This document shows positions 6,961 to 10,748 of a stretch of DNA of 10,748 nt, in pieces. The stretch is taken from the NCBI GenBank assembly GCA_033551855.1, contig JAWSUI010000087.1:1-10748 (forward strand), given 5' to 3'. A program made the translations under genes and the position numbers. This DNA is from Deferrisomatales bacterium. GTDB lineage: Bacteria > Desulfobacterota > Deferrisomatia > Deferrisomatales > JACRMM01. Every line of letters starts with the position of its first letter. The first letter of the stretch is position 1. The notes below the pieces were generated by a model. It was given only the letters and a program-made list of their open reading frames with translations, had not been told where the DNA came from and did not search any database.

Positions 6961-7191
6961 CGGCGCCACCTCCGTGTCACGGTGCGATCGGGTCACACCT
7001 CCACCCGGCCCCATCGGAGCTCCAGATCGCGTTGTCCTCTTGCCCTGTGGGTTTGCAGAAATGGGCGGGGATCCACACGGCTTCGGATGCATACGTTCCT
7101 GCATGTCGGGTTTGCTCGCCTCTACCCTCCGCCAGAGCTCATCCGCGCGCGCTGGTCAACGGTCGGCGCCTCCTTGCTGATGTGCGGCTGC

Positions 7192-7208
7192 AGCAAGCCA
7201 CCGTGCCA
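7192..7208 (-). promoter_or_regulatory. Sigma54-like site with one extra base in the spacer
   Basis: Minus strand TGGCACG-GTGGC-TTGCT (N5 instead of N4), 232 bp upstream of the lipoprotein ATG. Confidence 0.5.
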
Positions 7209-7246
7209 CGGGCGGGGAGCTTCCCATGGGGCCGAAACCGGCTTTG

Positions 7247-7259
7247 TTTCAATGGCTTG
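7247..7259 (+). promoter_or_regulatory. Putative IHF site
   Basis: TTTCAA-TGGC-TTG, one mismatch to WATCAA-N4-TTR, lying between the sigma54-like site and the enhancer-like box. Confidence 0.4.
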
Positions 7260-7316
7260 CCTCGGACGAAGGCACCTCACCGGCAAGACTCCTCATATTT
7301 CTTGATCTGTCGTCCG

Positions 7317-7329
7317 GGCATTTTGTGCA
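7317..7329. promoter_or_regulatory. Putative enhancer-binding-protein site
   Basis: GGCA-TTTTG-TGCA, 109 bp upstream of the -24 element, same position as the box at 2476-2488. Confidence 0.48.
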
Positions 7330-7388
7330 CCATATCCCAGGCCGCTCGCTGGCGGACTTGCGGTCGCCGGCAGGCACCGACGGCACGG

Positions 7389-7417
7389 GTGCCCCGTCGT
7401 GCTGCACGGCGGGGCAC
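7389..7417. repeat. 29-bp near-perfect palindrome
   Basis: GTGCCCCGTCGTGC-T-GCACGGCGGGGCAC, 14-bp arms with a single G-T pair. Confidence 0.7.
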
Positions 7418-7429
7418 GGAGGACGTTTC

Positions 7430-7480
7430 GTCTTGACGACAGGGTAGCAGAGGGGAGGTAACGAATGGCTAACACGCGAG
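7430..7480. repeat. Conserved intergenic motif, copy 2 (paralog of 2580-2631)
   Basis: GTCTTGACGACAGGGTAGCAGAGGGGAGGTA...ATG...AACAC; 27/31 identity to copy 1. Confidence 0.8.
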
Positions 7481-7650
7481 GGCGACCGGGAAGGGGAGGA
7501 GGCCCGTGCGGGGGGGGCGTGGCAAGGGACGGACCGGCGGCGTGGGTACTGTCGACCGGAACGCGCCGTGTGCGCTTGGGGGGGGGCCCGCGGACGGAAC
7601 CCGCTGAGGTCCGTGCCCGCCATGCGGAGGCCAAGCTCCGTCGTGTGCGG

Positions 7651-7678
7651 GTGGGGTGGGCATTGCCCACCCTTCTAC
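7651..7678 (+). repeat. GTRG-family REP-like palindrome; may also terminate the upstream minus-strand operon
   Basis: GTGG + GGTGGGCA-T-TGCCCACC + CTTCTAC; perfect 9-bp arms (7654-7662, 7664-7672); about 35 bp past the stop at 7709. Confidence 0.62.
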
Positions 7679-7708
7679 GCTCCCCGCTGACGATTCTTTG
7701 CCGGGTCC

Positions 7709-8116
7709 TCAGGCCTGCGCCGGCTGGGGCGCGGTCATGAGCCGGTAGAGGGCGAGGCCCACCAGGAAGTCCGCCGTGGCCATGGCGCTGTAGGGGAAGG
7801 TCGTGTGCAGGAACCACCCCAGGGGGTCAGCGCCCGGCGTCACCGGCAGCTGGCCCGTCAGGGTCCGCACGAGGGTGAAGTCGGTCATCAGGATGATCCC
7901 GAGGAACGCGATGAAGCTGTTGAGGAGCACCCCCCACACGGCCGTGCGCCGCGAGAGGAAGAGGGAGCTGACGATGAGGAGGTCGGCCGCGGCGAAGAGG
8001 TTCCCCCAAAGGTAGACCGTCCCTCGACTGGGCGGGTGGATGCGGTAGTGCATCATCACCGCGCCGATGGCCAGGCCCAGCAGGGCCAACCAGAGCATCC
8101 GTCGTTCGGCCGCCAT
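7709..8116 (-). CDS. Hypothetical 4-TM membrane protein with HxRIHPP motif
   Basis: RBS GGAGG; four hydrophobic helices; His in GAVMMHYRIHPP and WFLHTT; intramembrane Asp in AADLL and TADFL. Confidence 0.85.
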   Translation of the reverse strand: MAAERRMLWLALLGLAIGAVMMHYRIHPPSRGTVYLWGNLFAAADLLIVSSLFLSRRTAVWGVLLNSFIAFLGIILMTDFTLVRTLTGQLPVTPGADPLGWFLHTTFPYSAMATADFLVGLALYRLMTAPQPAQA

Positions 8117-8127
8117 GAGGCCCCTCC

Positions 8128-8226
8128 CTAGAATTTCGCGGTATACCCCAGCAGGAAAACCAGCGTGACCGCCACCGCGTGGAGAACGATCCAGCCCGGC
8201 TTCGGGTACATCAGGTGCCGCAGCAT
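8128..8226 (-). CDS. 32-aa single-TM His microprotein (cytochrome b559 subunit-like), not in ORF track
   Basis: MLRHLMYPKPGWIVLHAVAVTLVFLLGYTAKF*; RBS GGAGG 7 nt before the ATG; 4 nt from the previous stop and 11 nt from the next start; mostly G/C third positions. Confidence 0.8.
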   Translation of the reverse strand: MLRHLMYPKPGWIVLHAVAVTLVFLLGYTAKF

Positions 8227-8230
8227 CCCG

Positions 8231-8341
8231 TCACCTCCCCACGTAAAGGGCCGCGAGCCGGCCCGCTGTGTACACCACCGCCAGGCCCACGAAGTGCACC
8301 ACCCACCACCGGGCGGTCAGGAATCGCCACTCCCGCTTCAT
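8231..8341 (-). CDS. 36-aa single-TM His microprotein (cytochrome b559 subunit-like), not in ORF track
   Basis: MKREWRFLTARWWVVHFVGLAVVYTAGRLAALYVGR*; RBS GAGGAGGAG directly upstream; basic N-terminus plus one TM helix; paralogous to 8128-8226. Confidence 0.8.
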   Translation of the reverse strand: MKREWRFLTARWWVVHFVGLAVVYTAGRLAALYVGR

Positions 8342-8462
8342 CTCTCCTCCTCACGGCCTCAGATCGGTGCTCCCCCCTGCCGGTGGGCGCGCCCTGCTGA
8401 AGGCTGCTGCCGCTGCATTCGGCAAGCTCCGTCGCCGCCGAGCGGACAGCCTCGGCCCACAC

Positions 8463-8491
8463 TGGATAGCACCGGGGTGGGGCTTGGTCAA
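8463..8491 (-). promoter_or_regulatory. Possible sigma70 promoter for the microprotein operon
   Basis: Minus strand TTGACC-N17-TATCCA with an extended TG; the -10 lacks the final T. Hairpin GCCGAG/CTCGGC (8437-8456) at the predicted start. Confidence 0.4.
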
Positions 8492-8784
8492 GGCCATGCC
8501 GACAACCTGGATTCACCGGCTGGTCGGCAAGCGGAGTCCGGGATCCCGTGCGTTTCGCCCCGCAATCCGCGGTAATTCGAGGAAGTGTCCCCGCGGTCCC
8601 CGGTGCGCCGGGCTTCACCCGCTTGCACCGGGCTCGCCGACTCGGTGGATGCGGTGCGGGGCTGCACTCCTGGGCTCGCGGACTCCGCCCCACAATGTGG
8701 TGGATTCTGGGACAACTGACGCCCCAGCAGGGGTGCCCCCCGGCGGCTTCCGGGGGTGGGGGAAGAACGGCTTTTTCCCTGGAG

Positions 8785-8827
8785 TTGACCCACGTCATGT
8801 CGGCCCGCGCGGGTCCTCGGCTATCCT
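8785..8827 (+). promoter_or_regulatory. Crp/Fnr-family (HcpR/Dnr-like) box with -10 element, class II activated promoter
   Basis: TTGA-CCCACG-TCAT (8785-8798) resembles TTGA-N6-TCAA; TATCCT at 8822-8827 places the box centre near -42. Confidence 0.65.
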
Positions 8828-8868
8828 GCGTCCAAGTTGGACGGAAGAGCGAAGACGGAGGACCGACC

Positions 8869-9105
8869 ATGAACTTTCCCAATGGGCTCGGCGACCGGGC
8901 CATCAACGACGTCGTCGCCGAGCACCCCACGATCGGCTCCATCCTGGAGAGGCACGAGATCGGCTGCGTCACCTGCGGCGTGGGCATCTGCCTGCTCAAG
9001 GACGTGGTGTCGATCCACGGCCTGCCCGCGGACGCGGAGCAGGCAATCGAACGGGAGATCACGAGCTACCTCGAGAGCGTACCCCACAGCAAAGAGGAGA
9101 CCTGA
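8869..9105 (+). CDS. DUF1858-like small CxxC protein (hybrid cluster protein-associated redox disulfide domain)
   Basis: RBS GGAGGA at 8857-8862, ATG 8869; INDVVAEHPTIGSILERHEIGCVTC...LKDVVSIHGL; 78 aa. Confidence 0.85.
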   Translation: MNFPNGLGDRAINDVVAEHPTIGSILERHEIGCVTCGVGICLLKDVVSIHGLPADAEQAIEREITSYLESVPHSKEET

Positions 9106-9106
9106 G

Positions 9107-9565
9107 ATGACCAACCTGGCTTGCGGCTGCCCCGGCTCCAACGTGCGCACCCTGCATCGATCCCCGAGTCCCGCCCCCCAGGATCCCGCCCGGGTCCCTT
9201 CGGAGCTCCGGCAGTGGCCCACCCAGCTCCGGCTGGTCCCCCCGACGGCCCCCTGGCTCCAGGGCGCGGACCTCCTGGTGGCGGCCGACTGCGGGCCCTT
9301 TGCCTACGGCGATTACCACCGGGATTTCCTCAAGGGCCGGGTGGTGGTGAACGCGTGCCCCAAGCTCGACGAGGCAGGGCCCTACGTGGAGAAGCTGGCC
9401 GAGATCTTCCGGCAGAACGACCTGCGGTCGATCACGGTGGCCATCATGGAGGTGCCGTGCTGCAAGGGGCTCGAGGTGATCGTGCGGCAGGCCCTGGCGG
9501 CTTCGGGGAAGGCCATTCCCCTCGACGTGGCCGTGATCGGGGTCGACGGCGAGAGGAGGCAGTGA
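9107..9565 (+). CDS. Cys-rich iron-sulfur cluster-binding protein (C-terminal domain of the hcp-associated ferredoxin family)
   Basis: ATG 1 nt after the upstream stop; motifs CGCPGS, SELRQWPTQLRLVPP, LLVAADC, ACPKLD, MEVPCCKGL; 152 aa. Confidence 0.87.
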   Translation: MTNLACGCPGSNVRTLHRSPSPAPQDPARVPSELRQWPTQLRLVPPTAPWLQGADLLVAADCGPFAYGDYHRDFLKGRVVVNACPKLDEAGPYVEKLAEIFRQNDLRSITVAIMEVPCCKGLEVIVRQALAASGKAIPLDVAVIGVDGERRQ

Positions 9566-9567
9566 CC

Positions 9568-10137
9568 GTGCGCGACGTGACCTCCGTGCTCACCGAGGAG
9601 CACCGTCTGATCCTGCGGATGATCGACCTGGTGGAGCACAACACGCGGTTGGTCGAAGAGGGGGGGTTCTCGGACTGGGACTTCTACCTGGACGCGGTCG
9701 ACTTCATCCGCCACTACGCCGACCGGTTCCACCACGCCAAGGAGGAGGACGTGCTCTTCCGAGAGCTCGTGCGGAACGGGATGCCGGAGCAAAACTCGCC
9801 GGTGGCGGCCATGCTGATGGCCCACGACCAGGGGCGGGCGTTCGTCCGGGGCATGGAGGAGGCGGCTCGTCGCGCCAAGGGCGGCGACGCCTCGGCACCG
9901 GCGGCCGTGGCCGAGAACGCCCGCGGCTACGCCGCACTCCTGCGGGACCACATCGACAAGGAAGACAACATCCTCTATCCCCTGGCCGAGCGGGTCCTCC
10001 CGGCGGGCTGGCGCGACGCCATGGCGGCCGAGTACGAGGGAGCCGAACGGCCGGGCATCCAGGAACGCTACCAGGAGTTGGTGGAGCGGCACGAGGAGCG
10101 CGCCCGCCAGGGCCGGGCCAGGGCTTCCGCGGCCTGA
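9568..10137 (+). CDS. Hemerythrin-like (HHE cation-binding) domain protein
   Basis: EEHRLI, HHAKEEDVLF, AHDQGR, DHIDKEDNILYP. GTG 9568 is 8 nt after GGAGG (9555-9559); GTG 9562 overlapping the upstream stop is an alternative. Confidence 0.92.
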   Translation: MRDVTSVLTEEHRLILRMIDLVEHNTRLVEEGGFSDWDFYLDAVDFIRHYADRFHHAKEEDVLFRELVRNGMPEQNSPVAAMLMAHDQGRAFVRGMEEAARRAKGGDASAPAAVAENARGYAALLRDHIDKEDNILYPLAERVLPAGWRDAMAAEYEGAERPGIQERYQELVERHEERARQGRARASAA

Positions 10138-10187
10138 GACCGCTCCGCCGGCCGTTTCCCGGATGATCCAGATTTCGGGGCGCGCGT

Positions 10188-10230
10188 GGCCTCCCCCGGG
10201 GTGACCGTGCGGGGGAGGCCTCTCCGTTGT
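10188..10230 (+). terminator. GC-rich hairpin after the hemerythrin gene, possible terminator
   Basis: GGCCTCCCCCG (10188-10198) and CGGGGGAGGCC (10210-10220), perfect 11-bp stem; U-tract weak (TCTCCGTTGT). Confidence 0.5.
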
Positions 10231-10321
10231 GCCGAGCGCCGCTTGACTCCCGAAGGCAATGCGGGCAGAAGAGGCGGGTCCGCCCTCGGCTCGGACCGGG
10301 GGCGGCGGCTCGGGAGGCGGC

Positions 10322-10748
10322 ATGGACGGCGCGTGGGTCTACCCCCTGCTCTTCGGGGCGGGGCTGGTGGCGGGCACCATCAACGTAGTGGCCGGGGGGG
10401 GGTCGTTCCTTACCCTCCCGGTCCTCATCTTCGTGGGGCTCCCCCCCACGATCGCCAATGCCACCAACCGCGTGGGGGTGCTGCTCCAGAACGTGGGGGC
10501 CGTGTGGGGGTTTCACCGGCACGGCGTGCTCGACTGGCGCAGCGTCGCCTGGGCGGCCTTCCCGGCCGCCCTGGGTTCCCTGCTGGGCACGTGGGCGGCC
10601 CTGCGGGTGGGGGACGAGGCGTTCCAGCGCATCCTCGCGTTCCTGATGATCGCCGTGACCCTGTGGTCCCTGTGGAACCCGCTCCGGGGGCGGGCCGCGA
10701 AGGGCGGGGGCGGGCTCCGGGTGGGGCTGCTCGCGGCGGGCTTCTTCG
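10322..10748 (+). CDS. Sulfite exporter TauE/SafE (TSUP) family protein, 5' part, runs off window
   Basis: RBS GGGAGG; MDGAWVYPLLFGAGLVAGTINVVAGGGSFLTLPVLIFVGLPPTIANATNRVGVLLQ; frame open to the window end. Confidence 0.92.
   Translation, partial: MDGAWVYPLLFGAGLVAGTINVVAGGGSFLTLPVLIFVGLPPTIANATNRVGVLLQNVGAVWGFHRHGVLDWRSVAWAAFPAALGSLLGTWAALRVGDEAFQRILAFLMIAVTLWSLWNPLRGRAAKGGGGLRVGLLAAGFF

Follow-up and report, generated by a model that had tools for sequence, protein, structure and literature searches.

A conserved trio of small membrane proteins in anaerobic Desulfobacterota that includes two peptides resembling cytochrome b559

The window analysed here, i.e. the whole stretch of 10,748 nucleotides (nt) taken from contig JAWSUI010000087.1 of a Deferrisomatales bacterium (assembly GCA_033551855.1), carries on its minus strand three consecutive genes for small membrane proteins. 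The first two, which we call pepA and pepB, encode single-helix peptides of 36 amino acids (aa; 8341..8234, MKREWRFLTARWWVVHFVGLAVVYTAGRLAALYVGR, TGA stop codon at 8233-8231) and 32 aa (8226..8131, MLRHLMYPKPGWIVLHAVAVTLVFLLGYTAKF, TAG stop codon at 8130-8128), respectively, and the third, called 4TM, encodes a four-helix membrane protein of 135 aa (8116..7712, stop codon at 7711-7709). Only 4 nt (8230-8227) lie between the stop of pepA and the ATG of pepB, and 11 nt separate the stop of pepB from the ATG of 4TM. Each gene has a GGAGG ribosome-binding site on the same strand: that of pepA (8346..8350) lies 4 nt before the ATG at 8341, that of pepB (8234..8238) lies within the final codons of pepA, 7 nt before the ATG at 8226, and that of 4TM (8123..8127) abuts the stop of pepB, 6 nt before the ATG at 8116. 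The first-pass annotation of this DNA, which was made from the letters alone, had described the peptides as two neighbouring short open reading frames (ORFs), 4 nt apart and each with a strong ribosome-binding site, and the ORF positions and the GGAGG sites bear this out. Downstream of the trio (7105-7708) there are only spurious Arg/Pro-rich frames, and upstream a 527-nt spacer (8342-8868) is followed by a divergent set of plus-strand genes. Given the tight packing, the gene-poor downstream region and the spacer before the divergent genes, pepA-pepB-4TM is a three-gene operon.

The two ORFs are very short and high-GC DNA yields many spurious ORFs, so that they might not be genes at all but chance frames, or an untranslated leader upstream of the 135-aa gene. 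Several observations speak against this. Firstly, the peptides are conserved at the amino acid level across loci whose 4TM proteins are 46-78% identical to that of the window. Secondly, the median ratio of non-synonymous to synonymous substitution rates (dN/dS) is 0.19 for pepA (22 sequences, 156 out of 231 pairs usable) and 0.27 for pepB (18 sequences, 128 out of 153 pairs usable), and this holds in the proposed frames only, as the two shifted frames of the same DNA give values of 0.93-2.24. Thirdly, each ORF is preceded by a GGAGG site of its own, and in 9 loci pepA is found as an in-frame C-terminal domain of 4TM. Finally, among 1.84 billion representative proteins the pepA profile picks out 65 clusters of predicted proteins (E ≤ 0.001). 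We thus consider the chance that these ORFs are not genes to be close to negligible; pepA, pepB and 4TM are protein-coding genes under purifying selection.

The residues that are kept in the two peptides occupy similar positions. W13, H16, Y24 and G27 are invariant among the 28 pepA homologues (alignment A3), and H16, L26, G27 and F32 among the 27 pepB homologues (alignment A4), i.e. the same His is present in 28 out of 28 and 27 out of 27 sequences, respectively. At position -5 from the His of pepA an Arg is found in 23 out of 28 homologues. When the two profiles are aligned with each other (hhalign, A3 against A4) the probability is 95.3% with an E-value of 2.2e-8, and His falls on His; pepA and pepB are paralogues. 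The ungapped register of the first-pass annotation (W at -4, H at 0, V at +2, V at +7, Y/F at +8 and G at +11) was correct, and the conservation on which it had staked its proposal is there: the pair is kept upstream of homologues of the 135-aa protein, with one invariant His per peptide and the low dN/dS values given above.

Two variants of the peptides should be mentioned in passing. In two loci, L025 (5857-5990) and L033 (5849-5990), pepB is frameshifted while the adjoining pepA and 4TM genes are intact; both are 'uncultured delta proteobacterium' records of metagenome-assembled genomes (MAGs), the breaks may reflect either sequencing error or decay, and the 4TM match of L033 starts at residue 11. 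In addition, P0134 (85 aa) and P0150 (79 aa) each contain two His helices of the pepA kind in one chain, with a polar linker of some 20 residues between them. If these fold as a hairpin the His residues would be placed at opposite membrane faces, and a dimer could hold two hemes.

Cytochrome b559 is the only named family that pepA and pepB resemble. The cytochrome b559 model PF00283 is the sole Pfam match of either peptide at E ≤ 10 (14.3 bits and E 0.029 for pepA, 12.4 bits and E 0.11 for pepB), and TIGR01333 is the sole NCBIfam match of pepB (14.9 bits, E 0.015); the curated cut-offs of the two models are 30 bits and 61.15 bits, respectively. PF00283 is also the commonest family among the homologues at E ≤ 1, with 6 out of 28 pepA sequences (best E 0.0093) and 10 out of 27 pepB sequences (best E 0.0012), and a six-frame scan of the 4.24-Mb genome returned pepA and pepB as its only PF00283 matches at E ≤ 10. 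No match at or above the PF00283 cut-off was listed for the scanned proteins or genome frames. The search with the Pfam model that the first-pass annotation had suggested thus points to this family, but not at the level of the curated score.

The likeness is more pronounced when profiles of the peptides are searched against the 177,635 distinct sequences of the PDB. The pepA profile A3 has 54 matches at E ≤ 10 (best E 0.013, 18.2 bits), and 53 of these are chains E or F of photosystem II, 52 of them named cytochrome b559, PsbE or PsbF and one (7ymi_F) named 'Photosystem II protein Y'; the single match outside photosystem II is 2pw9_A. Similarly, 27 of the 31 matches of the pepB profile A4, including the top 24, are PsbF (best E 0.01, 18.7 bits), and the best 60 of the 67 matches of a broader profile built from 62 sequences (A6; best E 0.003, 20.2 bits) are all photosystem II chains E or F. 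In every alignment to a photosystem II chain that was printed for A3, A4 and A6 the His of the peptide lies on the His of the chain, and the shared register includes Arg at -5, an aromatic residue at -4/-3, an aromatic residue at +8 and Gly at +11. The features of PsbE and PsbF that the first-pass annotation had named (these same positions, His at 0 and Pro at +5) are visible in the HMMER alignments with the solved photosystem II chains, and its remark that both peptides lack the Pro was confirmed. A control profile made from the His-bearing first helix of 4TM found two PDB matches, neither of them cytochrome b559.

The scores can be put on a scale with an empirical null of 8.06 million residues from a six-frame genome translation, in which the best non-self scores of the three profiles were 9.7, 7.7 and 8.4 bits. 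The cytochrome b559 chains, at 18-20 bits, sit 7-12 bits above this background. In comparison, the two pepA profiles give pepB 16.0 and 20.4 bits, the pepB profile gives pepA 10.0 bits, and hence the b559 chains are as close to the profiles as pepA and pepB are to each other. Among the clusters of the ESM Atlas, which applies another method to the same sequences and which we treat as leads only, those of cytochrome b559 rank second and third for pepA (0.86 and 0.85) and fourth for pepB (0.84). At the level of sequence, the resemblance of the peptides to cytochrome b559 is specific and non-random. Whether it reflects common descent or convergence is a different matter, and we would put the chance of common descent at about one half.

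The third member of the trio does not belong to any Pfam or NCBIfam family. Of the 8000 candidates scored with the 4TM profile, 1042 proteins match at E ≤ 0.001, and the 120 of these relatives that were listed carry no Pfam domain and are called 'hypothetical protein', if they are named at all. The residues that are invariant in 69 homologues include H23, H27, P29, D45, N66, M77, D116 and Y124. In the AlphaFold2 model (pLDDT 92.6) the invariant His23-x3-His27-Pro motif lies at the end of helix 1. A Foldseek search of the model against the PDB gave nothing at E ≤ 0.001, and the best match of VIA-align (Z 10.9) is to unrelated four-helix bundles. One apparent fusion was set aside: P0309 (298 aa), in which a queuosine-synthesis (QueA) domain runs into the C-terminal two thirds of 4TM, comes from a contig of 1074 nt and is probably a chimeric assembly or gene call.

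The peptides accompany 4TM in most genomes. The 4TM gene was found in 6 out of 41 related genomes, with the peptides beside it there, and a scan of species-representative genomes, queried with the four closest 4TM sequences (A2), gave 26 loci in which pepA lies upstream of 4TM in 25 (all except L015) and pepB is present in all 26. The carriers of the related contigs belong to the Desulfobacterota/Thermodesulfobacteriota (Desulfobaccales, Desulfurivibrio, Desulfomonile and MAGs named 'delta proteobacterium'), with a Desulfurivibrio isolate among those that have the trio, and the names of some 4TM relatives point to Nitrospirota/Thermodesulfovibrionales, Armatimonadota and Chloroflexota. Of 401 sampled genomes of the phylum, a set that overlaps in part with the 26 species-representative loci, 25 carry 4TM (24 out of 340 of good quality; 21 out of 254 genera), in one copy each. 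Local profile searches sorted these 25 loci into three architectures. Type I is the split arrangement pepA-pepB-4TM (14 loci), in Type II a pepA-like helix is fused to the C-terminus of 4TM and is followed by pepB (9 loci), and in Type III 4TM stands without the peptides (2 loci). Fused 4TM::pepA proteins also appear among the matches of the pepA profile (P0151, P0157, P0160 and P0180).

The fusion makes it very likely that 4TM and pepA form a physical complex. There are no conserved neighbours of the trio across lineages (16 related loci), and as the neighbouring genes vary from one lineage to the next the trio is a self-contained module. pepA, pepB and 4TM are an obligate trio, and on balance we favour the view that their products are the three subunits of one small membrane complex in Desulfobacterota anaerobes. 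The first-pass annotation had proposed a minimal b-type cytochrome made of the two peptides. The peptides are indeed real, conserved, paralogous and b559-like, but the unit is the obligate trio with 4TM, which carries its own invariant His-x3-His-Pro motif and is fused with pepA in some lineages, and not a minimal cytochrome of two peptides.

The loci in which 4TM lacks the peptides suggest a redox context. The gene that follows 4TM in both Type III genomes, its start overlapping with 4TM, encodes a protein of 463-469 aa with the domains Ferric_reduct (PF01794, the di-heme b membrane domain), FAD_binding_8 and NAD_binding; the two genes together span 68-1890 in L058 and 62-1908 in L060, on the minus strand in both. 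A metagenome scan with the Type III 4TM gave 24 loci (including L061-L080), and in all 20 that were informative, i.e. that held a whole 4TM gene and DNA downstream of it, the same flavocytochrome gene comes next and no peptide was detected. As these loci are 64-87% identical to the query they represent one clade. When Types I and II are compared with Type III, the partner of 4TM is thus either the peptide pair or a known conduit for electrons through heme b. The Type III-like clade resembles a bacterial NOX-type enzyme with a dedicated gene for a four-helix partner; its 4TM proteins carry other residues in place of the intramembrane Asp and Asn found in the window's clade, and they have a His in helix 4.

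A second link to redox chemistry comes from fusions. In P0179 (74 aa) a rubredoxin domain of the rubrerythrin type (PF21349, E 1.9e-11) is linked to a helix that resembles pepA and bears the His, and P0310 (583 aa) consists of a 4TM domain that is 59% identical to the 4TM of the window, a Rubredoxin domain (E 4.5e-20), a GAF domain and a nucleotide cyclase. The latter protein would suggest a redox-sensing signalling variant of the complex. According to PMC6697814, psbE and psbF of cyanobacteria cluster with the gene of a membrane rubredoxin (rubA-ycf48-psbEFLJ), and an electron path from NADPH through FNR and rubredoxin to cytochrome b559 has been proposed there. The rubredoxin fusions of P0179 and P0310 echo both this gene cluster and the proposed path.

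The distribution of positive charges gives an indication of how the three proteins may be oriented in the membrane. The Lys+Arg values of the N-terminal and C-terminal flanks are 2.89 and 0.89 in pepA and 2.04 and 0.81 in pepB, and the value for 4TM is 5.4 in the N-terminus, loop 2 and C-terminus as opposed to 2.45 in loops 1 and 3. From these values we infer that the N-termini of pepA and pepB are cytoplasmic, and the N-terminus, second loop and C-terminus of 4TM would likewise be on the cytoplasmic side. A cytoplasmic C-terminus of 4TM fits its C-terminal fusions both to pepA and to the rubredoxin/GAF/cyclase domains. With the N-termini inside, the His of both peptides would lie near the cytoplasmic face, similarly to the heme of cytochrome b559, which PMC6697814 places on the stromal side, and the His23-x3-His27-Pro motif of 4TM would lie at the outer, periplasmic face. 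A complex prediction with 4TM, pepA, pepB and heme (pepB as the partner), made without folded controls, gave a score of 0.30 on each of two runs (mark 0.32) and counts neither for nor against heme binding.

On the basis of these observations we propose that the trio is a membrane cytochrome b of three subunits, in which a bis-His heme of the b559 type lies at the cytoplasmic face, a proposal that we hold to be somewhat better than even. In such a complex, pepA and pepB would form a parallel heterodimer with cytoplasmic N-termini, and their two His residues would ligate one heme b at the inner face, as those of PsbE and PsbF do. Together with 4TM the peptides would make up a six-helix complex, in which the outer His-x3-His of 4TM may provide another redox or metal site, or be the point at which an electron path leaves. 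Single electrons would then pass between a cytoplasmic donor, possibly a rubredoxin-type or flavin/NAD(P)H module, and the outer side of the membrane. We consider it slightly more likely than not that the complex binds heme; PMC5730185 reports that b559-type peptides and heme assemble spontaneously in vitro and in vivo. The transmembrane electron path is a less secure part of the proposal than heme binding.

There are a number of points that weigh against this proposal and that need to be discussed. All cytochrome b559 scores, at 12-20 bits, are below the 30-bit cut-off of Pfam and the 61-bit cut-off of NCBIfam, so that membership in PF00283 is not established. Matches to PF00283 at E ≤ 10 also occur in 11 out of 14 control genomes, and because of this a match at that loose level says little by itself. 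There is no PF00283 match at E ≤ 1 for 22 out of 28 pepA and 17 out of 27 pepB homologues, and among the distant relatives only 2 out of 15 (P0174 and P0134) have one at E ≤ 10. Neither pepA nor pepB has the Pro that both b559 subunits carry at +5, the Arg at -5 is replaced by Gly in pepB and in 5 out of 28 pepA sequences, and in at least one distant relative (P0166) a Tyr takes the place of the His. As pepA and pepB are paralogues, their matches to cytochrome b559 are not independent evidence. The fold of 4TM matches generic four-helix bundles only, and its invariant intramembrane residues Asp45, Asn66 and Asp116 would also suit the binding of ions or metals. Finally, the rubredoxin links are rare and come from short metagenome contigs (P0179 is a singleton cluster and P0310 belongs to a cluster of three members), and when the loci examined were scanned with a motif, no rubredoxin gene turned up next to the cassette.

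Several of these points would be expected if the trio were a membrane device that works without heme, for example a sensor or a small transporter of metals or ions, and if the likeness to cytochrome b559 were due to convergence or chance. The core of such a device would be 4TM, with one site at Asp45/Asn66/Asp116 and another at the outer His-x3-His, Met77 and Asp79, and the peptides would be accessory helices with His residues that hold a metal or a proton. The polar and acidic residues that are invariant within the membrane and the His-x3-His-Pro motif agree with this, as do the scores that stay under every curated threshold, the split cassette that lacks a conserved redox neighbour, and the fold search that yields nothing but helical bundles. 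On the other side, the PDB matches of the peptide profiles are almost exclusively cytochrome b559, aligned His on His, when the control profile of another His-bearing helix finds none, and the scores exceed the empirical background by the margin given above. Also, Asp45, Asn66 and Asp116 are not kept in the NOX-linked 4TM clade, a di-heme flavocytochrome b replaces the peptides in the clade that is devoid of them, and there are two separate fusions with rubredoxin. We therefore estimate the probability of a non-heme device at roughly one in four.

The arrangement of the invariant His residues, four in total and in two pairs at opposite membrane faces, could also belong to a device that traffics or chaperones heme instead of carrying electrons. 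Cytochrome c synthases, which have paired His sites, offer a loose analogy. That b559-type helices readily bind heme, as stated in PMC5730185, is in keeping with such a function. On the other hand, no Trp-rich external heme-handling domain was seen and 4TM lacks any Pfam or NCBIfam match, there are no cytochrome c maturation genes among the neighbours, and the links to NAD(P)H, FAD and di-heme domains and to rubredoxin favour electron transfer. Heme handling is, in our opinion, improbable, at about one chance in ten, and the three-subunit cytochrome b remains our preferred reading.

It is instructive to compare the trio with cytochrome b559 itself. Both have two related single-helix peptides encoded by adjacent genes (4 nt apart in the case of pepA and pepB), with one His shortly after the start of the helix, on an N-terminal side that is cytoplasmic or stromal. 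Both also show the aromatic residue at -4/-3, the His at 0, the aromatic residue at +8 and the Gly at +11, and pepA has in addition the Arg at -5. The differences, apart from the scores under the PF00283 and TIGR01333 cut-offs and the missing Pro at +5, concern size, partner and setting. Firstly, pepA lacks the lumenal C-terminal extension of PsbE, as the matching alpha chains in the PDB have 74-84 residues as opposed to 36. Secondly, the partner of cytochrome b559 is D2, whereas that of pepA and pepB would be the four-helix 4TM. Thirdly, the trio has no psbL or psbJ neighbours and its hosts are anaerobic and non-photosynthetic. The type II reaction centre family PF00124 has no match in the genome, which is 100% complete, and no photosystem family occurs among the genes around the trio, be it in the window or at 16 related loci. 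The statement of the first-pass annotation that the window contains no photosystem genes agrees with the gene families found in it.

Other known systems share single features with the trio. The membrane-anchored rubredoxin RubA/RBD1, as described in PMC6697814, resembles P0179 in layout, a single membrane helix coming after a rubredoxin-like domain, and in P0310 the rubredoxin domain sits on the cytoplasmic C-terminus of 4TM, which would likewise tie it to a b559-type system. In contrast to the conserved neighbouring gene of RubA, the cases described here are rare metagenome fusions, and the helix of P0179 is itself pepA-like and His-bearing. Type III loci call to mind the flavocytochromes of the NOX/FRE type. 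The p22phox protein is the small four-helix partner of NOX flavocytochromes b, and in Type III loci, too, a heme-b conduit has a small four-helix partner, the two genes overlapping. A NOX/FRE flavocytochrome is absent in the clade of the window, which has the two peptides instead. Neither 4TM nor its NOX-linked relatives have a Pfam match that would connect them to p22phox, and p22phox was not among the matches listed by the fold searches, which are generic helical bundles. Cytochrome b561 and Dcytb are small helical membrane redox proteins with His residues near both faces and would work in a way similar to the trio; their fold matches to 4TM (Z 8.0 and Z 8.3, respectively) are within the noise of helical bundles, and their His pattern is unlike that of the trio, in which each peptide has one His and a single helix of 4TM has the His-x3-His. 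We also considered whether 4TM might itself be a di-heme cytochrome of the Ferric_reduct or cytochrome b561 type. This type has four His on two helices and binds two hemes, whereas 4TM has only two invariant His, on helix 1 or at its end, and no Pfam match, and does not fit this type.

The remaining features of the window deserve a brief description. The trio lies between two long stretches that lack any convincing gene (about 600 nt at 7105-7708 and 527 nt at 8342-8868; 65-72% GC), in which no Rfam family, sigma-70-like promoter or terminator-like site was found. In the window as a whole there is no Rfam family and the scan for sigma-70 promoters was empty; the sole terminator-like site falls inside pepB, at chance level. 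The plus-strand set that diverges from the trio (8869-10747) begins with a 78-aa protein (8869-9102) with a weak likeness to the hybrid-cluster-associated redox disulfide domain (TIGR03980, E 9.1e-5, below the cut-off), continues with a 338-aa hemerythrin-domain protein (9121-10137) that is weakly similar to the iron-sulfur repair protein YtfE/RIC, and ends with an exporter of the TauE/SafE type (10259-10747) that is cut by the end of the window. These genes are not kept beside the trio in other lineages. At the other end of the window, on the minus strand, an ORF of 311 aa (337-1272) has an IS200-like Y1 transposase domain (E 2.2e-10, two matched stretches); it is longer than the 121 positions of the Pfam model and adjoins a gene for an outer-membrane beta-barrel protein (1429-2130).

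Cytochrome b559 is essential for the assembly of photosystem II, and its role and origin are debated. The literature searched treats it as a component of oxygenic phototrophs only, and no published description of b559-like peptides outside phototrophs was found in it, subscription journals and supplements not being covered. In that literature the trio is undescribed, and the peptide pair of the b559 type would thus be placed in a new complex and in a new biological setting. We speculate that pepA and pepB might be true homologues of PsbE and PsbF, and that non-photosynthetic anaerobes possessed a b559 module, functionally tied to rubredoxin and NAD(P)H/flavin donors and built into a small transmembrane redox complex, which photosystem II recruited (or that there was a very early transfer in the reverse direction). 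This scenario is tentative and, in our view, has rather less than an even chance. If it were true, the peptides would be the first relatives of cytochrome b559 outside oxygenic phototrophs and would provide a tractable non-photosynthetic model. With a conserved b559-like pair in sulfate-reducing and other anaerobes, it could be addressed experimentally whether the two-peptide bis-His heme design is older than, or independent of, photosystem II, whether the rubredoxin-to-b559 path proposed for photosystem II repair has a counterpart elsewhere, and what the job of a 'free-standing' cytochrome of the b559 type is. For the anaerobes themselves, the trio would add a widespread membrane complex to their bioenergetics, two of whose three subunits are short enough to be missed by gene callers.

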